Shown: positions 23,502 to 33,505, counted from the stretch's first letter. The stretch: DNA of 53,746 bases from Streptosporangiaceae bacterium (GCA_030040155.1 JASHUG010000379.1:1-53746); one strand, 5' to 3'. The notes: generated by a model from the sequence alone, not told the origin. Translations and numbers: made by a program.

Positions 23502-24725
23502 TCACCAGGCCGAGGCGTCCTGGCCCGAGATACCGGACGTGGACGGGCTGGGGAACCCTGGCAGGGGCGCGAATCCGTAGTCGGATACCCGGCCGAAGCT
23601 GAAGCATGAGGCGAGCAGGTTCGTCCCGGCGGGCGCAAGCGAGAGGACTCTGCACTCCTCGTCGAGCAATTCGGCACTACCCTGCATGCCTGGCGTGGCT
23701 CCGTGCACGATCTGGGTGCTGAGGATGCGGACCAGCTTGCCGGTCCGCGCCGACACCTCCACGATCCGGGCGATCACGGTGATGCGATTGCCGTCCGGGA
23801 TGTTCGTAACGGTGCTGCCAATGACCATGCTGCCGTTGGCCGTCACTAGCGCTTCGGGGAGGACTCCCCGCGGCGCCGGAGGCGAGGCGATTGCGCGTGC
23901 CGCGAGCAGGTTGCCGCCCTGGCCCGTCACGTTCAGAAGCCGGTATTGCCGGCCCGACAAGAAGGCGACGGTCGAGTCGCCCGCCCAGGACACGAAGCTC
24001 AGCCAGGTGGCTGGCCGCATTGTCCAGGTGCGCACCGCACGATTGGCGAGCGTCACAATGATCAGGCCGGTGTGACAGCGGTCCTGCTGACATGGGATCT
24101 CTGCGATGGCGAGCCTGGTGCCATCGGGCGACAGGGCCACGTCCCCGGTTTCGGTGGTGCCCGGCAAGCTGATCGGCAGCTTGGTCAGCCGGGCCGAACG
24201 GCCGTCGGGGGCCAGCCTCAGCAGGTAGAACCAGGCCACATTGTGGTCCGTGCCGAGTCCGCCGGTCTCGGTGATGACGAACGTGCGGTCGTCGTTGGCT
24301 CCGCTGATGGTAGGTCCGACCACCTCGCCGCCGATCGCCAGCGTCGGCACATCAATCCTGGTTAGGGCGCGGCCGGTGGCGGAGCTGTGCACCACCGCCA
24401 CGGTGATGATGCCGCGGTGATCGGTATAGCTCTGATACAGCGTGACGTAGTAGGGCGGCATCCCGGCTGGCAGCGAGGCGGGCGCTGATGGCGTCGGCGG
24501 TGCGAATGCCAGCTTTGGCTCGCGGCCGGGATTGTGTGCACCCACCAGCGATACGCCGGCGACGACGGCCATGACCGCGACGACCGAGGCAGCTGGCGCC
24601 AGCCAGCGCGCGGTCTGCGATCTCCTGCGTACCGGCACCAGCCGGGGTCCGCGGATGGTGTCGGGCCGCGCGCGGTCGGCGAACTTGCCGAGGTCGCGGC
24701 GCAGCCTGTCTTCGAGCTGGGTCAT
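23502..24725 (-). CDS. membrane-anchored beta-propeller-like protein, putative anti-sigma/sensor partner of ECF locus 2
   Basis: Starts 4 nt after the sigma stop. N-terminal helix MTQLEDRLRRDLGKF, one TM segment (WLAPAASVVAVMAVVAGVSLVGA), then about 330 aa of beta-rich repeats (TolB/WD40-like by eye). Confidence 0.65.
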   Translation of the reverse strand: MTQLEDRLRRDLGKFADRARPDTIRGPRLVPVRRRSQTARWLAPAASVVAVMAVVAGVSLVGAHNPGREPKLAFAPPTPSAPASLPAGMPPYYVTLYQSYTDHRGIITVAVVHSSATGRALTRIDVPTLAIGGEVVGPTISGANDDRTFVITETGGLGTDHNVAWFYLLRLAPDGRSARLTKLPISLPGTTETGDVALSPDGTRLAIAEIPCQQDRCHTGLIIVTLANRAVRTWTMRPATWLSFVSWAGDSTVAFLSGRQYRLLNVTGQGGNLLAARAIASPPAPRGVLPEALVTANGSMVIGSTVTNIPDGNRITVIARIVEVSARTGKLVRILSTQIVHGATPGMQGSAELLDEECRVLSLAPAGTNLLASCFSFGRVSDYGFAPLPGFPSPSTSGISGQDASAW

Positions 24726-24729
24726 CGGT

Positions 24730-25296
24730 TCAGTCCTCCCCGAGTGTGCGGGCCAGCGTCGCTAGGGCCCGGCTGAGCGTCGTTCGTACCGCGCCTGGCG
24801 TGATGCCCATCGTCCCGGCTATCTCGGCCGCGTCCAGGTCGGCGTAGTAACGGAGCACGACGGCCTCGCGCTGGCGGCGGCTCAGCGACTGCAGCGCCGC
24901 AATCACCGCGCCGCTGTCGTCGACCGCCGCGATGGCATCCGGCGAGCCAGCCCCTGGAGCCTCGGCCAGCCTCGGACTGTACTTGCGCGCGGCCGCGGCC
25001 CGGCGACGGACCGACCGGCAGCCGTTGAGCACGCAGGATCGCACGTAGGCTAGGCCGCTGGCTTGCTTGCGCAGCCCGTGCCGACCGCGGTGGAGTTGCT
25101 CGAACGCATCCTGAACCACATCCTCGGCGGTAGCCAGGTCGCCGACCATCACCAGCGCCAGCCGCACAAGCTCGAGCCAATGATCGCGGAACAGGTCCTG
25201 CACTGGCACGGCAGCCTCGCCGAGCCTTGCGCAGGCGGCATCCGCCCGCTCCCGGGCGCCGGCCGGGCCGTCGATCCGCGTTTCTTCTGCCGCCAT
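24730..25296 (-). CDS. ECF-type RNA polymerase sigma-70 factor (locus 2)
   Basis: Trimmed to ATG 25296. Region 2 DLATAEDVVQDAFEQL...LAYVRSCVLN and region 4 LSRRQREAVVLRYYADLDAAEIAGTMGITPGAVRTTLSRA. Confidence 0.85.
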   Translation of the reverse strand: MAAEETRIDGPAGARERADAACARLGEAAVPVQDLFRDHWLELVRLALVMVGDLATAEDVVQDAFEQLHRGRHGLRKQASGLAYVRSCVLNGCRSVRRRAAAARKYSPRLAEAPGAGSPDAIAAVDDSGAVIAALQSLSRRQREAVVLRYYADLDAAEIAGTMGITPGAVRTTLSRALATLARTLGED

Positions 25297-25475
25297 CGCG
25301 TCGTTCACACTAAAGAGACGCCTGGCGCCGGGCGAGCGCACCGGTCATCGAGGACAAGCTTCTGGCCGGCAAGCTGCCTCGGACGGCCATCTGGCGCGCC
25401 GAAGTCCTTGGCACCGCACCGCGCCCGGCGCGACCCTGACTGTCTCAGGTGGACCGCTCTGGCGACTGTGCCGAT

Positions 25476-27278: not shown

Positions 27279-28568
27279 TTAGCCATGGGGCAGGAGTACC
27301 GGGCCGACGCCGGGGATGGCGTTGGCGCGGGCTTCGGCCAGGAGCGCTGCGGCGGCTTGCCTGGCGTTCTCGCCGGTGCGTGATATGCGGGCGGCGATCA
27401 GGCCGGACACGATTGGGGTAGCGAACGACGTGCCGCTCCACTTGGCCATTCCGTAGAAGTTACGGACCTGCCCGTCATAAGGGCTGACGTGGCAGGTGTA
27501 AGTACCGGTCGCGTAGGCATTAATGAGGTCGCGCCCCGGCGCGTAGACGTCCACCCAGGGACCGTAGTTGCTGAACGACGCGCGGCCGCGCCAGTCACTG
27601 CCGAGCGCGCCGACCGAGATCACCTCGGGGAACGCAGCAGGCCATGTCGGTCGACGTCGACTGCTGTTCCCGGCGGCGGCTACGCACACTGCCCCTTTGG
27701 AGTTGCTCAGGCGGCGAAGCCAGTCGCCGAAGGCGATGAGTGGAAGATCGTTCCTCGATGGGCAGGCGATTGTCAGGTGGAAGATATCGACGCCATGCCG
27801 GAACGCTGACTCCAGCCCCGGCACGAGGTCTGCTTCCAGGGTGCTGCCGGCTATGGAGAAGGCATTGGTCACGATGATGTCCGCGGCCGGAGCCATGCAC
27901 CGGAGCACGCCGGCGACGAACGTACCGTGGCCGGTGTAGGGAGGAATGACCGGCGGGTTTCCCTGCAGAGGCGCTGGCGGGTCGAAATCCTTGGCCGGAT
28001 CACGCACCTGCACACCCTCCAGCCACGGATGGCCATCGGCGGCGTCCCTGAGAAGCCCTGTGTCGGCAAGGTAGACCAGGACACCGCTTCCAAGACCGTC
28101 AGCGGAAACCGACGGAAATGGCTCGATGTCGTGGTAGGCCTCTTCAGGCTCGGTCGCTGGGCAGTACGTCAGATCCCCGTCGCCGCTCACGGTCATCACG
28201 TGATTCGGCGTGGCGATTCCCCTGCCGAGGCGCTGATCGACGAGATCAAGCGCTTCGGCGACGCTGGGGTGGGGCTCACTCAGAGTCAGCAGGACATGCC
28301 CGGCGATCACCCGCCGGATCCGCTCGGGCTGGCTTCGCTCGATGTCCTGCCGGTTCGGGTGTCCAATGACCTCAAGGACCCGATCGAGGTACTCCTCACG
28401 CACCAGGATCTCGCCCTCGGCGTACATGTGGTCGACGCCGCCATTCGCGGGGACGACCGTGATCGCCTTGCCGCCGTCAGGATGGTGCAGGAAAGCGTCA
28501 ACGATGTGCTCGATCTCGTCGGCGATCTTGGGGCGCAGACCGTTCCGCAAATCGCCAGGCTCGGTCAC
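27279..28568 (-). CDS. S8 family (subtilisin-like) serine peptidase, cytoplasmic, with a non-catalytic N-terminal domain
   Basis: The catalytic motifs appear in subtilase order: VLVYLADTGL (Asp codon 28064..28062), TGHGTFVAG (His 27929..27927), AAAGN (oxyanion Asn) and SGTSFATP (Ser 27428..27426). No signal peptide or TM segment. Start placed at GTG 28568, 5 nt after GGAGGG; the track ORF extends to GTG 28625. Confidence 0.85.
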   Translation of the reverse strand: MTEPGDLRNGLRPKIADEIEHIVDAFLHHPDGGKAITVVPANGGVDHMYAEGEILVREEYLDRVLEVIGHPNRQDIERSQPERIRRVIAGHVLLTLSEPHPSVAEALDLVDQRLGRGIATPNHVMTVSGDGDLTYCPATEPEEAYHDIEPFPSVSADGLGSGVLVYLADTGLLRDAADGHPWLEGVQVRDPAKDFDPPAPLQGNPPVIPPYTGHGTFVAGVLRCMAPAADIIVTNAFSIAGSTLEADLVPGLESAFRHGVDIFHLTIACPSRNDLPLIAFGDWLRRLSNSKGAVCVAAAGNSSRRRPTWPAAFPEVISVGALGSDWRGRASFSNYGPWVDVYAPGRDLINAYATGTYTCHVSPYDGQVRNFYGMAKWSGTSFATPIVSGLIAARISRTGENARQAAAALLAEARANAIPGVGPVLLPHG

Positions 28569-28708
28569 GTTGTCCCTCCGTTGCTGAACGACATGGAATG
28601 CGCGTCCGCCGGGCCTGAGCGGCACCGGCCGGGCCGGCGGCGGGGGCCCACGCGCCCGCCGCCGGTACTCCTATGGAGCAAACGCCTGACGGCTTGATAC
28701 CGCACGCC

Positions 28709-28733
28709 GGAACCTTTTTGCAAAATTTGTGTT
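28709..28733 (+). promoter_or_regulatory. ECF-type promoter motif GGAAC-N17-GTT facing the CHAT gene
   Basis: GGAAC at 28709..28713, a 17-nt AT-rich spacer (CTTTTTGCAAAATTTGT), and GTT at 28731..28733. The motif sits about 120 nt upstream of the CHAT start, inside the most AT-rich stretch of the window. Confidence 0.4.
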
Positions 28734-28854
28734 CTCCGACCTGCCTGTCACTTTCTGCGGCAATTATGTTACTTTAAGTTACAGGAACTAAAGACCCGTT
28801 TAAGGCACAAAAGTAGAACGTACATTCGCTAGCTATAGGACAGCTAGTTGTAAT

Positions 28855-31509
28855 TTGCGGGTCTACGCTAACAGTGTGGAGCGAACGGCTACGCCTGCCG
28901 AGGCGAAGCCTTACAGCGAAGAGGATTTGCTGCTGCTGGCAGTCGCGCGCCCGCGGGAGGCCATCGCGAGGGCGCGCAGCCTGCTTGCTACCAGGCCCGA
29001 CCCCTATGTGGCGTCGATTGCGCACCAGGCCGTGGGCATCGTGCTGCGCGACACCGGCGACATCAGCGACGGAGTTAGCGAGCTGCACGCCGCGCTGCGC
29101 CTCGCCACGCGCTCGGGCTCAGCTGAACGTGCCGCCGACGTCCTGGCCTCGCTCGGTGTGGCATTTGTGCACGCCGGCCGGACAGCCCACGGGCTGAAGG
29201 TTCTTGACCGTGCTATTCAGCTCGTCGACGGTGGGCCGCTAGGGCGGGCGCTGTACAGGCGAGCGGCCGTGCTATGGATGCTGGGCCGTTACGAGGCGGC
29301 ACTCGAGGATCTGCGCCGCGCCGAAAACCCGCTGAAACAGGCGGGTGATCTCGTGTGGACGGCCCGAGTGCTGAACGTTCGCGGACTGGTCTACATGGGC
29401 GCCGGATTGCCCGGCCGAGCGGACGCCGACTTCGCGGCAGCCGGGCGGCTACTTGCGGAGACCAACGATGAGCGTGGGTCTATCCATGCGCTCCTGAACC
29501 GTGGTATCGCCGCGTTCCGGTCCGGGGACCTGCCCGCCGCGTTGTCGTTCTTCGACGAAGCGGATATCCGGTATCGCCCGCTGAATATCCCGCGGCCGGA
29601 ACTGAGCCGTGCCCGCTGCGCTGTCCTGCTGGCCGCAGGCCTCACCGGCGAGGCGCTGTCGGAAGCCGATGCAGCTCTTCAGGATTTCGAGCAGGCCAAC
29701 GGCTGGTCCACGAAGAAGGCCGAGCTCCTCCTGACCGCGGCTGAGTGCGCGCTTGCCGGCGGCGAGCCCACGCTCGCGGTTGAGAGAGTTCAGGCTGCGT
29801 GCCGGCTGTTCCGCTCCCAGCGGCGCGACAAGGATCTCGCCCAGGCGCGGCTGGTGCTGGTCGAGGCGCGCTACGCCGTCGGTGGCGTGTCAGGTCGGTT
29901 GCTTTCAGCGGCGAATGATGCGGTGGTTCGTGATCAGCTTCGGCCCGACGAGGCTGCGCGGGCGCACTTGCTGGCAGGGCGCATCGCCCTTGAACTGGGG
30001 CGCCGAGCTGACGCTGAGCGGCATCTGCTCGCGGTCGCCAGGACTCGGCGACGCGGTCCGGCTATCTCCAGGACCAGCGGCTGGCTTGGGGTGGCATTGC
30101 TGGCCGAGGCGTCCGAGGAGCCCAGGCGAATGCTGGCCGCCTGCCGCCGCGGGCTCGAGGTACTGGACGAGCACCGGTGGACGCTGGGCGCGTCGGAGCT
30201 GCGGGCACAAGCGACCGCGCACGGGACTGAGCTGGCCACCATCGCCCTGCGCTACGCGGCCAAGGCCGGAAGCCCGAGGCTGTTTCTTGGCTGGGCCGAA
30301 CGCTGGCGCGCTACTTCGGCAAGCGTGCCAGCCGTGCGCCCGTCGGCCGACCCGGAGCTGAATGCTGATCTCGCCATGCTGCGCACCGTCGCGGTGCGAC
30401 TAGACGAAGCGCGCGAGCGGGGCGCGCCAACCGCCGCGCTCCAGCGGGAGCAGGTACGACTGGAAGGCGTGGTGCGCGCCCGGTCGTTGCTAGCTCGGGG
30501 CACAGGGTCGGCTGTCAACGGCGGACTTCACACCGCGGAGCTGCTCGACCAGCTCGATGGCGCCCGGCTGATCGAGCTGGTCGACCTCGACGGCGTGCTG
30601 CACGTACTGGTCTGCAGTGCTGGCCGGGTCCGGCAGTTCCGCGCGGGAGCCACGGCAGATGCCGTTCGCGCGGCCGAGTACGCCGGCTTTGCGTTGCGGC
30701 GCCTCGCCCGTGATCGGCCGCATAGCGATCCAGATAGCACGCTGGCGATCCTGGCCGCGGCTGGACCTCGGCTTGAGACAGCGCTGCTAGGCTCGGCTGC
30801 CGCGTACCTGGGTGACGGACCGGTTGTCGTGGTACCGCCGGGCAAGCTGCACGGGATCCCGTGGGCGCTGCTGCCAGCGCTCCGGCGTCGCGTATTCAGC
30901 GTGGTGCCCTCGGCGGCCGCATGGCTGCGGGCGCGGACGGCACTACCGCCTGCCAGGCGCCACGTCGCGCTCGCATGCGGGCCCGGCCTCACAACCGACG
31001 GGGCCGAGGTACCGCTGGTAGCCAAGCTCTACGACGACGTGACGGTACTGTCGGGCGTGCAGGCAAGCGCGCGGAACGTGCTGTCCGCGCTGGACGGAGC
31101 CTGGCTTGGTCATATTGCCGCGCACGGCAGCTTCCGCTCCGACAGCCCGCTGTTCTCCTCGCTGCGCATGCACGACGGTCCGCTGACCGTCTACGACTTC
31201 GAGCAGCTTGGGCGCGCGCCATACCGGCTCGTCTTGTCGAGCTGCGACTCGGGCGTCCTGGCTCCAGTCGGAGCTGACGAACTCCTCGGCCTGGTCGCCA
31301 GCCTGCTGCCGCTCGGCACCGCCGGGATCGTGGCGGGCGTCGTTCAGCTCAATGACCGTGCGGTCGTGCCGCTCATGGTGCAACTGCACGAGCATCTGCG
31401 GGCTGGCCGTGGCCTGGCTGAAGCGATGTACAGCGTCCGGCGTGACGCCACCGGAGAACCAGCCGAACGGGCTGCCGCGGTGTCGCTGCTGGCGCTTGGC
31501 GCCGGCTGA
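28855..31509 (+). CDS. TPR-like helical repeat protein with a C-terminal CHAT (caspase-fold) protease domain
   Basis: 884 aa with no signal peptide or TM segment and no Walker A motif. The N-terminal ~500 aa are Leu/Ala-rich helical repeats (e.g. LGRYEAALEDLRRA, FRSGDLPAALSFFDEA). The C-terminal ~330 aa are CHAT, with an intact dyad: LGHIAAHG (His codon 31123..31125) and LVLSSCDSG (Cys codon 31243..31245). Confidence 0.9.
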   Translation: MRVYANSVERTATPAEAKPYSEEDLLLLAVARPREAIARARSLLATRPDPYVASIAHQAVGIVLRDTGDISDGVSELHAALRLATRSGSAERAADVLASLGVAFVHAGRTAHGLKVLDRAIQLVDGGPLGRALYRRAAVLWMLGRYEAALEDLRRAENPLKQAGDLVWTARVLNVRGLVYMGAGLPGRADADFAAAGRLLAETNDERGSIHALLNRGIAAFRSGDLPAALSFFDEADIRYRPLNIPRPELSRARCAVLLAAGLTGEALSEADAALQDFEQANGWSTKKAELLLTAAECALAGGEPTLAVERVQAACRLFRSQRRDKDLAQARLVLVEARYAVGGVSGRLLSAANDAVVRDQLRPDEAARAHLLAGRIALELGRRADAERHLLAVARTRRRGPAISRTSGWLGVALLAEASEEPRRMLAACRRGLEVLDEHRWTLGASELRAQATAHGTELATIALRYAAKAGSPRLFLGWAERWRATSASVPAVRPSADPELNADLAMLRTVAVRLDEARERGAPTAALQREQVRLEGVVRARSLLARGTGSAVNGGLHTAELLDQLDGARLIELVDLDGVLHVLVCSAGRVRQFRAGATADAVRAAEYAGFALRRLARDRPHSDPDSTLAILAAAGPRLETALLGSAAAYLGDGPVVVVPPGKLHGIPWALLPALRRRVFSVVPSAAAWLRARTALPPARRHVALACGPGLTTDGAEVPLVAKLYDDVTVLSGVQASARNVLSALDGAWLGHIAAHGSFRSDSPLFSSLRMHDGPLTVYDFEQLGRAPYRLVLSSCDSGVLAPVGADELLGLVASLLPLGTAGIVAGVVQLNDRAVVPLMVQLHEHLRAGRGLAEAMYSVRRDATGEPAERAAAVSLLALGAG

Positions 31510-31522
31510 CCAGCCTGAGCAG

Positions 31523-31966
31523 TCAGAGCGAGATCCATCCGGTCAGGGCCTCGACGCCGGTGTCGGTCCGGCAGTGCAGCCGGAACGAGCCGGACGGGAT
31601 CGGCTGAATCGCGAAGAGGCCGATGTTGTCGGCGGTCACAGCCGTCTCGGCGCCAGCCTTCGGCTGGACCTTGATCGTGGCCTCCTGGCCGGGGACGACT
31701 TGCCCGATCACGGAGTCGAGCGTGACTTCGAGCTCGATCGTGAGGTGCGCGGAGGTGAAAGTCAGGGCGCGGATGGACGCGGTCTCGGTCCTGGTGCCCG
31801 GCGCCGGGTCGAGATCGCGGGTGGAGTCGTAGGTCAGCTGCGCCAGCTCGGCATCGATGTTGTGCCAGGCAAACGTGTTCTTGGCGGTGACCACGAAATC
31901 GGCCGGCACGGCCTCCCTGGCGCGGACAGCCTGCCGCAGGGCGAGGACAAGCTCTTCGTCTTCCAT
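31523..31966 (-). CDS. 147-aa soluble protein immediately downstream of the ECF sigma (locus 3); candidate anti-sigma/adaptor
   Basis: Track ORF 31523..32332 trimmed to ATG 31966, 5 nt after the sigma stop. Sequence MEDEELVLALRQAVRAREAVPADF..., followed by a beta-rich C-terminal part. No TM segment and no HxxxCxxC motif. Confidence 0.7.
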   Translation of the reverse strand: MEDEELVLALRQAVRAREAVPADFVVTAKNTFAWHNIDAELAQLTYDSTRDLDPAPGTRTETASIRALTFTSAHLTIELEVTLDSVIGQVVPGQEATIKVQPKAGAETAVTADNIGLFAIQPIPSGSFRLHCRTDTGVEALTGWISL

Positions 31967-31971
31967 GGTGC

Positions 31972-32577
31972 TCACCTCCGCGTTTCCTTGAGTGTCACGC
32001 TTCCCGGCTGGTTGTCGAGGACCGCAGTGAGGTGCGGTGAGCGGCGCAGCCGTTCGAGGCACCGGGCGCGCGTCGGCCCGATCGACCCGACCGGCATGCC
32101 CAGCTTCAGACCGATCTCGGCATACGCAGGGGGCGGGTCGCTGATCAGCAGAGACAGCAGCTCGTGGCAGCTTGGGGACAGTTCCGCGAACGCCGCGCGC
32201 AGCGCGGCGTTCAGCTCGGCCTCGATGATGTCCTGCTCGATCGCGGTGGGTGAGAGATCTGGCGGCATCTGGTCTTCGGCCGGCCAGGCTTGACGGTCGC
32301 GCCGACGAACGTCGCGCACGACGCGCAGGCATTCGTGCTTGGTCGTGGTCGCTAGCCAGCCGGGGAGCGCGGCGCGCTCGCGGAGACCTGCGATGTTCTC
32401 GACGAGCAGCAGCCAGACGCTCTGGCCGACATCGTCGATGTCCTGGCGCTCAAGCTGATAGCGGATGCAGATTGACCACACGAGCGGGGCGTACCGCTCG
32501 ATGAGCTCGTTCCACGCCTCTTGATCTCCGCCGCATACCCTGTCCACCAGGGCAATGACCGACGGGTCGTCGCGCAT
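31972..32577 (-). CDS. ECF-type RNA polymerase sigma-70 factor (locus 3)
   Basis: Trimmed to ATG 32577, preceded by GGAAAGGA. Region 2 DQEAWNELIERYAPLVWSICIRY...DDVGQSVWLLLVENI...LPGWLATTTKHECLRVVR and region 4 YAEIGLKLGMPVGSIGPTRARCLERLR. Confidence 0.85.
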   Translation of the reverse strand: MRDDPSVIALVDRVCGGDQEAWNELIERYAPLVWSICIRYQLERQDIDDVGQSVWLLLVENIAGLRERAALPGWLATTTKHECLRVVRDVRRRDRQAWPAEDQMPPDLSPTAIEQDIIEAELNAALRAAFAELSPSCHELLSLLISDPPPAYAEIGLKLGMPVGSIGPTRARCLERLRRSPHLTAVLDNQPGSVTLKETRR

Positions 32578-32914
32578 GGCGTGTCCTTTCCAGGCCGGCC
32601 GACGTTTCAGCATCGTATTCCTGCTAAGTACGCAGTTCCCATAATGCCGGGATGCTTCGGCCGCTCGGGTGCAGGACCCTAACTTGTCAGGCAACGCGGG
32701 AGTACTCCCTCATGACCTGCAGAGCAGACGTTGGCTCCGCAGATACACCGGGGAGCGGGTTAATTCGCGGCTGTACCGCCGCAGAAGCCACACCTGCGGG
32801 CCAATTGGCAGCTGCGGAATTGCGCAAGAAGGCATGTATCAGAACAGTCTGCTTCTGCTCCGCAGTCCGGAGCGCCTTAGCGGCCAGCGCCGCCGGCCGA
32901 CGAATGGGGTCACG

Positions 32915-33505
32915 ATGGGTTTCTGGTCTTGGCTGGACATTCCGCTCGCCGTGCTGGTCTTGGCGGCTGCCCGTGGCGTCCCCCTCTGGATCGACTGGCG
33001 GACCGCCGTTGCCGCGTCGGGTTTCGGAACGGCGCCGGCCGCGGACCTGTGTCCGATCGGAGTCGAGTCGCTTGGCCTGGCCGAGTCCGACGAGCGACTC
33101 GCTGAGCCTGGCTGCCTGGCCGATGAGGTTGCGCCGCAGGACGGGCTCGTGCTGCAGCTGACACCGTGCCCGCAATGCGGGCTGCCTGCCGAGATCCGGG
33201 CGAGATTCCGCCTGGAAAGTACCGACGGGCCCATCGATCACGTCGCACTGAGCTGCATCAACGATCACCACTTCCGGATGGCTGTCGACCGTCTGCCCGT
33301 GGCGCCACTCGCGCCGGTCGTGCGGGCTCCATCCAGTCGAGACCAGCGGGACAGCAGCGCCGCCAATGACTTGGTAGTGGCGACCGTGCCTCTTACCGAG
33401 CGGCCCCCGGCGGCAGTGCGGGCGGGGAACCCTGCCGCCGGGGGCCCGATAGCGCCAGGGCGGGTGACCTCCGGCTGCGAGGACACGGAGGCTTCCCGCA
33501 ACTGA
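32915..33505 (+). CDS. hypothetical membrane protein with a Cys/His zinc-ribbon-like motif
   Basis: ATG 32915 (MGFWSWLDIPLAVLVLAAARGVPLWI, one TM segment), then TPCPQCGLPAEIRARFRLESTDGPIDHVALSCINDHHF. The frame has good G/C third-position bias. The antisense ORF 32687..33271 looks non-coding. Confidence 0.45.
   Translation: MGFWSWLDIPLAVLVLAAARGVPLWIDWRTAVAASGFGTAPAADLCPIGVESLGLAESDERLAEPGCLADEVAPQDGLVLQLTPCPQCGLPAEIRARFRLESTDGPIDHVALSCINDHHFRMAVDRLPVAPLAPVVRAPSSRDQRDSSAANDLVVATVPLTERPPAAVRAGNPAAGGPIAPGRVTSGCEDTEASRN

Follow-up and report, generated by a model that had tools for sequence, protein, structure and literature searches.

The ECF sigma factor, the small partner protein (p147), the TPR-CHAT caspase-like protease and the S8 subtilisin-like protease encoded side by side in the 53.7-kb stretch of DNA analysed here (the window) form a real four-gene cassette, which is very widespread among soil actinobacteria. 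Its best explanation, to which we give a probability of about 0.4, is a self-contained cytoplasmic protease-gated ECF sigma module of Actinomycetota, with CHAT cleaving p147 and the sigma factor inducing itself and S8. The four genes adjoin one another as described in the initial annotation, and the catalytic residues of both proteases are intact according to Pfam matches and alignments. The absence of signal peptides and transmembrane segments claimed there also holds: no N-terminal signal-like sequences are found among the four proteins, and the sole hydrophobic stretch (CHAT residues 812-830) lies inside the conserved CHAT core. The coordinates are collected in Table 1.

Table 1. Genes and promoter-like elements of the cassette, numbered from the first letter of the window.
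Feature	Position	Strand	Basis or remark
Cytoplasmic S8 subtilisin-like serine protease	27279..28568	-	Pfam Peptidase_S8; alternative upstream start 28625
ECF-type promoter-like motif facing S8: GTATCA (28700..28695), 16 nt, CTCCATA (28678..28672)	28672..28700	-	
GGAAC-N17-GTT, motif of the initial annotation, facing CHAT	28709..28733	+	Sequence; not conserved
TPR-CHAT caspase-fold cysteine protease, 884 aa	28855..31509	+	Pfam CHAT and TPR families
p147, 147-aa sigma-adjacent protein, candidate soluble anti-sigma factor and protease substrate	31523..31966	-	AF2, alignment
ECF (group IV) sigma factor, 201 aa	31972..32577	-	Pfam Sigma70_r2, TIGR02937
Promoter-like motif ahead of the sigma gene, candidate for an autoregulated promoter: GTATCT, 16 nt, CTCTGCA	32718..32746	-	
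Third motif copy: GTATCA, 16 nt, CTCCGCA	32836..32864	+	Divergent from sigma promoter, faces 196-aa ORF

The S8 gene is divergent from the TPR-CHAT gene and adjoins it in all 75 of the 75 related loci with room for it (79 species-level genomes). The sigma/p147 pair lies at most ~5 kb away in ~67 of 79 loci (~85%), in four different positions and orientations relative to the protease pair, and CHAT adjoins the p147 gene in most loci. When 80 loci were compared, conservation was limited to these four families (in 80, 72, 66 and 61 loci); no fifth conserved family was found among them, the next real gene family being present in 13 of the 80, and the arrangement is thus more than a chance one. The proposal of a CRISPR-independent unit of four functionally linked genes is borne out by this synteny, which outlasts four rearrangements. 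The CHAT-S8 pair stands without sigma or p147 nearby in ~10% of loci, so the protease pair is able to exist, at least physically, apart from the sigma factor. The related loci belong to Streptosporangiaceae and Trebonia MAGs, Thermomonospora echinospora, Actinomadura, Micromonosporaceae and Nocardiopsis. Two module copies occur in some genomes, and the module is essentially missing from the plasmid collection (2 partial matches).

The TPR-CHAT protein is the product of the largest ORF of the window. The Pfam CHAT domain (PF12770) spans its residues 638-869 with E 4e-23 (82.6 bits against a cut-off of 24), and TPR_12, TPR_1 and TPR_2 are matched as well. The His/Cys dyad assigned in the initial annotation is invariant in 60 homologues and is formed by His757 (31123..31125, IAAHG) and Cys797 (31243..31245, SSCDSG). 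More than 2,382 homologues of the protein were found. Its start codon is uncertain, homology to relatives beginning near residue 23. The AF2 model predicts ~22 helical hairpins at residues 23-550, followed by a small beta/alpha insert and then by the C-terminal CHAT domain; the pLDDT is ~90 in the TPR region and below 50 in the catalytic core (residues 747-832).

The S8 protease is matched by Pfam Peptidase_S8 (PF00082, E 3e-23). Its triad Asp/His/Ser and oxyanion Asn follow in canonical order, and the previously noted motifs show at least 95% conservation among 75 sequences: Asp188 (DTG), His233 (HGT), Asn320 (GN) and Ser400 (SGTS), with residue numbers counted from the 28625 start. The first 20 residues of this long ORF have no counterpart in 65% of relatives, therefore the 28568 start of the initial annotation is the likelier one. 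The non-catalytic N-terminal region of ~150 aa is conserved and contains an invariant C-P-A-T-E-P motif; no Pfam or PDB sequence match was obtained for it. In the PDB the catalytic domain is similar to thermitase, subtilisin and intracellular serine proteases (ISPs), with 7y6m, 7xr8, 6f9m, 1dbi and 1thm among the best matches. The module enzyme shares with the ISPs and thermitase-like proteases a cytoplasmic S8 domain without signal peptide and differs from the ISPs by the extra conserved N-terminal region and by its obligate pairing with CHAT.

The sigma factor consists of sigma2 and sigma4 regions only, with no extra domain. Its identification as an ECF sigma is confirmed by Pfam Sigma70_r2 and by TIGR02937 (sigma70-ECF, residues 20-179, E 3e-17, above the cut-off), and its MRDDPSV start is preceded by a conserved ribosome binding site in relatives. 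The sigma2-sigma4 linker and the C-terminal tail are variable and contain no invariant motif. As previously reported, p147 begins 5 nt past the sigma stop and ends 13 nt from the CHAT stop; in related loci its gene always comes straight after sigma, in the same orientation. According to the AF2 model, p147 begins with two helices (residues 3-16 and 22-50), continues with a disordered linker (51-65) and closes with an Ig-like beta-sandwich (66-144). The part of the second helix at 34-50 is conserved and modelled with low confidence. The linker has a pLDDT below 50 and yet is associated with two invariant arginines, Arg59 (31790..31792) and Arg66 (31769..31771), whereas the beta-sandwich after it is predicted confidently.

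p147 is a family of its own, comprising 3,686 clusters at 50% identity, of which the best-scoring 150 are all stand-alone proteins of ~139-244 aa. No Pfam, NCBIfam or PADLOC family and no transmembrane segment were found in p147. Foldseek against the PDB returned only generic FN3/Ig-like folds, all with E of 0.05 or higher (no match reached E 0.001), and the family profile gave no match below E 0.4 among all PDB sequences. Thus the suggestion that p147 might be a Csx30/Csx31-like protein or a known anti-sigma domain found no match in the PDB profile search, Foldseek or Pfam. Sub-threshold CarboxypepD_reg matches to the beta-sandwich occur in 33 of 67 members (best E 5e-4).

Co-evolution of the four proteins was assessed from pairwise-identity matrices over 54 loci. 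The identities of sigma and p147 correlate with r = 0.93 (partial correlation given CHAT 0.85). This tight coupling of two genes that always adjoin, here with a 5-nt gap, is as expected for a sigma/anti-sigma pair. CHAT and sigma identities correlate with r = 0.74. The partial correlation of CHAT with p147 given S8 is 0.51, and that of S8 with p147 given CHAT is 0.06; p147 therefore co-varies with CHAT rather than with S8, although shared phylogeny confounds all these statistics, as does the proximity of the genes, CHAT and p147 being neighbours in most loci.

The divergent S8/CHAT region was singled out in the initial annotation for its AT-richness and for a GGAAC-N17-GTT motif. Of all 500-nt bins in the window, the one with this region does have the highest AT content (GC 0.604), and the intergenic stretch alone has a GC content of 0.54. 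The motif is present there, and the window as a whole has 3 copies of it, compared with an expectation of 0.66. However, this motif is not conserved: GGAAC is rare upstream of sigma genes in related loci except for the closest relatives. As a whole, the earlier observation stood for its CHAT, S8 and sigma/p147 items and, as a description, for the AT-rich region and the motif, but as evidence the motif counts for nothing. It lies immediately next to the -35 element of a promoter-like motif of S8, on the upstream side of that element, and the two face opposite ways.

The latter motif is bipartite, with the consensus GTATCA-N16-CTCCGTA. Counted as GTATCA-N16/17-CTC with at most one mismatch, it precedes S8 in 62 of 71 loci and sigma in 48 of 66, against a background of 3.5% of random windows. 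Upstream of CHAT it is found in 2 of 77 loci at the same tolerance. The proposed sigma feedback on the CHAT promoter is therefore contradicted, the conserved sigma-type motif lying ahead of sigma and S8 and being matched exactly at CHAT in 0 of 71 loci. Most relatives have at CHAT a TGGACC-N17-TAnnnT element, followed ~7 nt on by GTG. Exact matches of the bipartite motif in the window number 3 against 0.36 expected, and all of them are in the module. The -10 parts CTCCATA and CTCTGCA of the window depart from the consensus. The third copy faces a Cys-rich, lineage-specific ORF of 196 aa (32915..33505) for which no Pfam match was found; the family of this ORF occurs in only 5 of 80 loci, so this copy marks a lineage-specific extra target. 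The bipartite motif could also be an operator for another regulator instead of the sigma factor's own promoter.

The composition of the module leads to the ECF54 group of sigma factors, reportedly described by Huang et al. in 2015 and by Casas-Pastor et al. in 2021. The four-gene module is the gene neighbourhood published for ECF54, a match based on genomic context. The ECF sigma has sigma2 and sigma4 only, CHAT and S8 stand in its context, the hosts are actinobacterial, and beside it there is no gene for a canonical anti-sigma factor, whether a transmembrane protein or one with a zinc-binding or other anti-sigma domain. PMC8999054, where ECF54 is summarised, gives for this actinobacterial group a neighbourhood with CHAT-domain, subtilase and 'carboxypeptidase'-domain proteins, and regulation by proteolysis has been proposed. 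The 'carboxypeptidase' may well be p147, judging by the CarboxypepD_reg matches. A nearby 4Fe-4S cluster protein is also reported as an ECF54 context element by Casas-Pastor et al. (PMC7826278). Because of this agreement the gene association itself is not new. The novelty claimed in the initial annotation thus stands in one respect, as no experimentally characterised example of the system and no experimental work on ECF54 were found in the literature searched, but the neighbourhood had already been published as ECF54 context (PMC8999054).

The claim that cas genes and CRISPR arrays are missing from the window is correct: Tandem Repeats Finder detected no CRISPR-like array, PADLOC gave 0 matches among the 43 other coding-like ORFs, and no ORF exceeds 884 aa, so that no Cas7-11 (gRAMP) effector lies within the 53.7 kb. 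The neighbours of the module are ordinary metabolic genes. The type III-E Craspase set consists of Cas7-11, Csx29 (TPR-CHAT), Csx30, Csx31 and CASP-sigma; Csx29 cleaves Csx30, relieving CASP-sigma, which autoregulates its locus (PMC10028731). In common with Craspase, the module has a cytoplasmic TPR-CHAT protein genetically linked to an ECF sigma; in Craspase, inhibition is relieved by cleavage of a sigma-binding inhibitor. The module differs by the additional S8 protease and by having no Cas7-11/crRNA activator, array, Csx30 or Csx31 homologue; the role of sensor must fall to the TPR array or to some ligand. p147 is far smaller than Csx30, which is cleaved at aa 427-429, and has a different fold. 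Kinship of the CHAT protein to Csx29 found no backing: neither the family profile nor the CHAT domain alone gave a PDB sequence match to it, and Csx29 is not in the top 50 Foldseek matches of the CHAT model, whose CHAT core is of low confidence, although the domain architecture is alike. The Craspase analogy holds in logic only, not in homology.

The best Foldseek matches of the CHAT model are separase (9hn5_A, E 9e-9) and TPR proteins, at low TM-scores (0.26-0.38) and with an unreliable core. In separase, too, a C-terminal caspase-fold His/Cys domain comes after a large solenoid of helical repeats, but this enzyme is eukaryotic, is controlled by securin and Cdk and has no sequence-level relation to the module CHAT. 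It cuts after Arg in unstructured motifs (PMC11506125), and by analogy the same after-Arg chemistry is proposed for Arg59/Arg66 of p147. Also significant, at rank 34, is the match to DdvA (8rot_A, E 8e-7), an anti-sigma factor with a TPR-CHAT domain, the DdvA/DdvS pair controlling a defence island. There, too, a TPR-CHAT module and an ECF sigma are coupled, and CHAT has been proposed to cut the linker of the anti-sigma factor. However, DdvA unites a zinc-binding anti-sigma domain, a transmembrane helix and TPR-CHAT in one polypeptide, and its CHAT is periplasmic with an incomplete active site, whereas in the module CHAT is separate and soluble and the candidate anti-sigma factor p147 is a separate protein without zinc-binding domain. 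A DdvA-type fusion was considered and rejected, as the CHAT protein, in its model, opens with TPR-like helices at residue 23 and has no zf-HC2 or other anti-sigma Pfam match and no N-terminal transmembrane segment. In the DegS/RseP-RseA-sigmaE and RsiW systems a signal-activated protease likewise removes an anti-sigma factor and an autoregulated ECF sigma is released. Both are membrane-bound systems relying on PDZ serine proteases and site-2 metalloproteases, in contrast to the wholly cytoplasmic module with its caspase-fold protease and an induced second protease.

The idea published for ECF54 does without an anti-sigma factor: sigma would be degraded by one protease or by both until a signal stops proteolysis, with p147 as an accessory adaptor or target. 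The correlation of CHAT with sigma and the lack of a known anti-sigma domain match in p147 are consistent with it. We consider it unlikely, as the invariant motif resides in the linker of p147 and not in the linker or tail of sigma, the sigma/p147 coupling fits a sigma/anti-sigma pair, and S8, induced from the promoter type of sigma, would provide negative feedback rather than the primary off-switch. It is similarly improbable that S8, and perhaps CHAT, are mere targets of the sigma factor in a proteolytic stress or developmental response, with p147 as an anti-sigma factor governed by a partner switch, a ligand or ClpXP. The motif common to S8 and sigma and the CHAT-S8 pairs without an adjoining sigma gene agree with this, and Casas-Pastor et al. 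note that context alone cannot separate regulators from targets (PMC7826278). But CHAT, which has no such motif, is of all the genes the one most firmly retained with the module and co-varies with p147 after control for S8; moreover, a sensor-like TPR array of ~530 residues with a promoter of its own is more typical of an input.

A role in defence or abortive infection, derived from or equivalent to Craspase, where TPR-CHAT would sense a phage cue and induced S8 would kill or arrest the cell, is the least probable of these alternatives and in our opinion very doubtful. It draws on the functional parallels with Csx29/Csx30/CASP-sigma (PMC10028731) and DdvA/DdvS, on protease cascades known in type III-B (bioRxiv 10.1101/2023.06.23.546230), on the two copies in some genomes and on a weak PADLOC 'subtilase' match of S8 (E 9e-9). 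Against this stand the blank PADLOC results for CHAT, sigma and p147 as well as for the 43 other ORFs, the missing array and large effector ORF, the metabolic neighbours, the dissimilarity of p147 to Csx30 and of CHAT to Csx29 in sequence, and the near absence from plasmids.

A proteolytic switch acting on sigma through the small sigma-adjacent protein, as put forward in the initial annotation, is the most economical reading. We infer from the evidence above that p147 binds sigma, that CHAT cleaves p147 and where it does so. In this mechanism sigma would be co-transcribed with p147, and the two N-terminal helices of p147 would keep sigma inactive, making p147 a soluble non-canonical anti-sigma factor. 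TPR-CHAT would be expressed constitutively from its own, non-sigma-type promoter, apparently housekeeping-like and leaderless in most relatives, and its ~530-residue TPR solenoid would be the signal sensor. Once activated, CHAT would cut the disordered linker of p147 at or near the invariant Arg59/Arg66 and sigma would be freed. The freed sigma would transcribe its own operon and the S8 gene from the GTATCA-N16-CTCCGTA promoters, and S8 would thereby be the induced output of the module, either as an executioner or remodelling protease or as a feedback element clearing the fragments.

The TPR-CHAT caspase-fold protease (CHAT), the divergent subtilisin-like protease (S8), the ECF sigma factor and the 147-aa protein encoded directly downstream of it were proposed from sequence in the initial annotation, and all four genes are borne out by the ORF listing and by profile searches (see the table). 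The His/Cys dyad assigned to CHAT (His757/Cys797) is invariant across 60 homologues, and the catalytic residues of S8 (Asp188, His233, Asn320 and Ser400) are intact and conserved at the level of at least 95% among 75 sequences. As had been stated, a signal-like N-terminus is absent from all four proteins; the sole hydrophobic stretch lies within the CHAT core. The S8 start chosen at that stage, 28568, is favoured over the long ORF start because most relatives lack the first 20 residues of the long ORF. Third-position GC of the S8 and CHAT genes (27279..31509) is 0.78, with neighbours mostly at 0.80–0.89. Within the CHAT gene GC1 equals GC3 owing to the Ala/Arg/Leu-rich repeats, and its low GC3 means that it is missed by simple GC3 gene filters. 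The start and promoter of CHAT in the window are uncertain: the annotated start is TTG, an alternative GTG lies downstream, and a short hairpin just before the annotated TTG is present both here and in the related locus L003.

Features of the sigma/protease locus and its surroundings in the window
Feature	Position	Strand	Details
TPR-CHAT protein, 884 aa, CHAT C-terminal	28855..31509	+	PF12770, E 4e-23
Peptidase_S8 protein	27279..28625 (long ORF)	-	profile match E 3e-23
ECF sigma factor	31972..32577	-	Sigma70_r2; TIGR02937, E 3e-17
147-aa protein	31523..31966	-	ORF listing; no Pfam, NCBIfam or PADLOC family
Bipartite motif copy	28700	-	facing S8
Bipartite motif copy	32746	-	facing sigma
Bipartite motif copy, GTATCA-N16-CTCC	32836..32864	+	facing 196-aa ORF
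196-aa ORF	32915..33505	+	no Pfam match
Conserved intergenic elements	28750..28782	+	two elements
Near-palindrome	28768..28782		one of the two elements at 28750..28782
TAGAAC-N4-(T/A)TTCG	28812..28831	+	between S8 and CHAT promoters
Short hairpin	28828..28848		just before annotated CHAT TTG
Alternative CHAT start	28876		GTG
Second ECF sigma gene	24730..25341	-	Sigma70_r2, r4_2
Second sigma gene and 407-aa protein gene	23502..25341	-	

A scan with the CHAT alignment, restricted to one genome per species, gave 79 loci with 49–75% identity in Streptosporangiaceae and Trebonia MAGs, Thermomonospora echinospora, Actinomadura, a Micromonosporaceae MAG and a Nocardiopsis MAG; the CHAT family as such has more than 2,382 homologues. 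S8 is located directly upstream of CHAT and divergent from it in all 75 loci with room for it, and the sigma/147-aa pair is no more than about 5 kb away in about 67 of the 79. The pair is downstream and convergent, as in the window, in 47 loci (plus 5 with the 147-aa gene alone detected), downstream and co-directional with CHAT in 7, beyond S8 on the minus strand in 9 and beyond S8 on the plus strand in 4. The linkage is kept through these four arrangements, which argues for a functional tie, and the four-gene synteny that the initial annotation asked for in other genomes is upheld in most of the set. Clustering of all coding-like ORFs of 80 loci gives these four as the only conserved families (80, 72, 66 and 61 loci), the next real family being found in 13. 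About 10% of the loci (L018, L044, L047, L051, L054, L056, L004 and L080) contain a divergent S8-CHAT pair without a sigma/147-aa pair within 6–10 kb. Two copies of the module are found in at least three MAGs (L040/L051, L033/L041 and L034/L074).

In agreement with the initial description, the window shows no sign of cas genes or CRISPR arrays: Tandem Repeats Finder detects no CRISPR-like array in its 53.7 kb, the CHAT gene is the longest ORF present, and none of the 43 other coding-like ORFs has a PADLOC match. The neighbours are ordinary metabolic genes. Neither Rfam families nor, by a strict scan, sigma-70 promoters were found at the locus, and the plasmid collection yielded only two partial matches to the module. 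The original observation is essentially correct: sigma factor and proteases make up a genuine module that is self-contained. At a distance of 2 kb from it lies another ECF sigma gene, unrelated to the first, and after this the gene of a 407-aa protein that has a single TM segment and matches no Pfam family; the two are a conventional sigma/membrane anti-sigma-like pair.

The association of sigma factor, CHAT and subtilase is already catalogued as ECF54 and hence is not new. Proteolytic regulation of this group was proposed from its context of conserved carboxypeptidase, subtilase and CHAT domain proteins (PMC8999054, with a Geodermatophilus model protein and with reference to Huang et al. 2015 and Casas-Pastor et al. 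2021), and ECF54 is placed by Casas-Pastor et al. with those groups that have no clear regulator (PMC7826278). The presumed ECF54 membership of our locus rests on genomic context, taxonomy and the absence of a canonical anti-sigma factor. The "carboxypeptidase" of the ECF54 context would most simply be the 147-aa protein; sub-threshold matches to the CarboxypepD_reg beta-sandwich occur in 33 of 67 members of the family (best E 5e-4). The original description of ECF54 is reportedly that of Huang et al. 2015. In the literature searched, no experimental study of such a module was found. Of the novelty implied at the outset, the gene association has to be given up as a published neighbourhood, and the lack of an experimentally characterised example stands within that literature.

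An orientation-specific bipartite motif with the consensus (G)GTGTATCA-N16-CTC(C/T)GTA, preceded by an A-rich tract about 15–19 nt upstream of GTATC, was found by K-mer enrichment. With at most one mismatch it precedes S8 in 62 of 71 loci and sigma in 48 of 66, as compared with 2 of 77 for CHAT and 3.5% for random windows. Exact matches number 140 in 3.1 Mb, 98 of them before S8 or the sigma/147-aa operon, whereas about 41 in total are expected by chance as estimated from base composition. Exactly three matches are present in the window (0.36 expected), all inside the module. The natural reading is that the sigma factor would autoregulate and drive S8, with CHAT expressed independently. Since the motif precedes sigma and S8 and not CHAT, the gene presumably under sigma control is corrected to S8, and the suggested feedback of sigma onto the CHAT promoter is wrong. 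In most of the sigma-less loci GTATCA...CTCC still precedes S8, suggestive of a paralogous sigma factor that acts in trans. The third copy is separated from the sigma promoter by about 90 bp and points in the opposite direction. The 196-aa ORF that it faces has an N-terminal hydrophobic segment and is cysteine-rich (CPQC...C...H); its family is found in 5 of 80 loci, and it may be a lineage-specific regulon member.

The GGAAC-N17-GTT motif facing CHAT was rejected as a sigma promoter: it is not conserved before the sigma genes of relatives, and its three occurrences in the window against 0.66 expected are not unusual. Its GGAAC lies immediately next to the S8-facing -35 element, on the upstream side. 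Most relatives have a different element before CHAT, T(G/A)GACC-N17-TAnnnT, at about 40 nt from the point where CHAT homology begins (e.g. in loci L005, L011 and L040), with a GTG start about 7 nt further on. This looks like a housekeeping-type promoter in a leaderless arrangement; it is recognisable neither in the window nor in L003. More than a spacer, the AT-rich stretch between the divergent genes is densely regulatory. Of 71 loci, 13 contain the conserved element TAGAAC-N4-(T/A)TTCG, in each case located between the promoters of S8 and CHAT. It resembles the actinobacterial LexA/SOS box (GAAC-N4-GTTC), with a conserved T/A replacing G, and might serve an unlinked regulator as its operator. 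Two more intergenic elements are conserved in many relatives, (T)TACTTTCTG and the near-palindrome GTTACTTTAAGTTAC.

In the AF2 model of CHAT, residues 23 to about 550 form an uninterrupted TPR-like solenoid (pLDDT about 90). The catalytic core (747–832, around H757/C797), the most conserved part of the protein, has pLDDT <50, probably because the alignment is shallow (65–80% identity). Foldseek ranks human separase (E 9e-9) and TPR proteins highest, with DdvA, the Myxococcus TPR-CHAT anti-sigma factor, at E 8e-7. Csx29, the TPR-CHAT protease of Craspase, is not among the top 50, a comparison which is not a fair test given the poor core; at the sequence level the CHAT domain matches nothing in the PDB, Csx29 included. 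On the sequence comparison, CHAT was not retained as a Csx29 relative. The likeness to Craspase is thus architectural and does not amount to close homology: the comparison holds as an analogy of logic, with no sequence match found to Csx29, Csx30 or Csx31.

The 147-aa protein belongs to a family with more than 5,000 matches in the 90%-clustered protein collection (3,686 clusters at 50% identity, the majority of them in soil Actinomycetota) and without a Pfam model; the 150 best-scoring clusters are stand-alone proteins of about 139–244 aa. Its AF2 model (67 sequences, mean pLDDT 76) consists of helices 3–16 and 22–50, a disordered linker (51–65) and a confident Ig-like beta-sandwich (66–144). 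Of two invariant arginines, Arg59 falls within the linker and Arg66 where the linker meets the beta-sandwich. Residues 34–50 are strongly conserved (W34, D38, A42, L44, D47, S48) yet modelled with low confidence, as would be expected of a segment folding on a partner. Csx30, Csx31 and known anti-sigma folds, the comparisons suggested initially, were ruled out by a profile search of PDB sequences and by Foldseek, which returned only generic FN3/Ig folds (E 0.05 or weaker).

Pairwise identities were compared across the 54 loci with all four genes. The correlation is r = 0.93 between sigma and the 147-aa protein (partial r = 0.85 given CHAT), 0.79 between CHAT and S8, 0.72 between CHAT and the 147-aa protein and 0.60 between S8 and the 147-aa protein. 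The last value falls to 0.06 given CHAT, and that of CHAT with the 147-aa protein is 0.51 given S8. These values fit a direct partnership between sigma and the 147-aa protein, with CHAT, not S8, as the coupled protease, and are only suggestive because shared ancestry and gene adjacency confound the statistics.

For the N-terminal region of S8, neither Pfam (E up to 10) nor the PDB sequences gave a match. By inspection of its sequence it would be a putative I9-like propeptide (beta-alpha-beta-beta-alpha-beta, with IATPNHVMTV at the end). After this segment and just before the catalytic domain, an invariant C-P-A-T-E-P (residues 155–160) and a second conserved Cys are found, and this may be a processing or inhibitory site. 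In the sigma factor, two cysteines of the sigma4 region, Cys137 and Cys173 (within PxxC(H/R)xLL and RARCL), are kept without exception in 23 diverse sigma sequences. Such cysteines are unusual for ECF sigma4 and suggest a redox- or metal-sensitive feature.

The order of events that we favour, with a probability of roughly 0.4, is that the 147-aa protein would act as a soluble, non-canonical anti-sigma factor, the TPR-CHAT sensor would cut it at the invariant-arginine linker, and the freed sigma factor would boost its own operon and induce S8 as output or feedback. That sigma is bound and its partner cleaved is inferred, as are the signal and the substrates of S8. Precedents are Csx29/Csx30/CASP-sigma (PMC10028731), the Arg-specific cleavage of disordered motifs by separase (PMC11506125) and DdvA/DdvS. 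The published view, in which the proteases degrade sigma itself, draws on the same conserved neighbourhood and seems unlikely to us; the co-variation of sigma with the 147-aa protein is very tight. It is also doubtful that the proteases are merely regulon members and thus only an output: the motif before S8 fits this reading, and its near absence before CHAT tells against it. Metabolic surroundings free of PADLOC matches tell against a Craspase-equivalent system of defence or abortive infection, with which the module would share the TPR-CHAT/sigma architecture; we consider it quite improbable.

An extended form of the favoured order, which we hold to be a rather long shot, is a stand-alone, CRISPR-independent "caspase-to-subtilase" cascade wired through transcription. 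TPR-CHAT would cut a new class of soluble anti-sigma factors at the linker arginine, sigma would amplify itself and the subtilase would execute. The class would combine a two-helix sigma clamp with an Ig-like domain, previously unrecognised, and the executioner would be a cytoplasmic subtilase, possibly an inactive precursor at first. In filamentous actinomycetes this might lead to a programmed arrest of growth, to cell death or to proteolysis during development. Such a cascade would be functionally convergent with Craspase and independent of CRISPR.

What remains of interest is an uncharacterised partner family of thousands, a concrete candidate circuit order with its promoter motif, and the point mutations that it invites: the catalytic C797 and S400, the invariant R59 and R66 and the defined motif all offer handles. 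ECF54 is one of the ECF groups without a demonstrated regulator, and the module is abundant. Should the proposed circuit be true, the module would represent the first ECF pathway outside CRISPR that is fully cytoplasmic and has a caspase-fold protease as its gate, would define a new anti-sigma family and would join two protease classes in one circuit.
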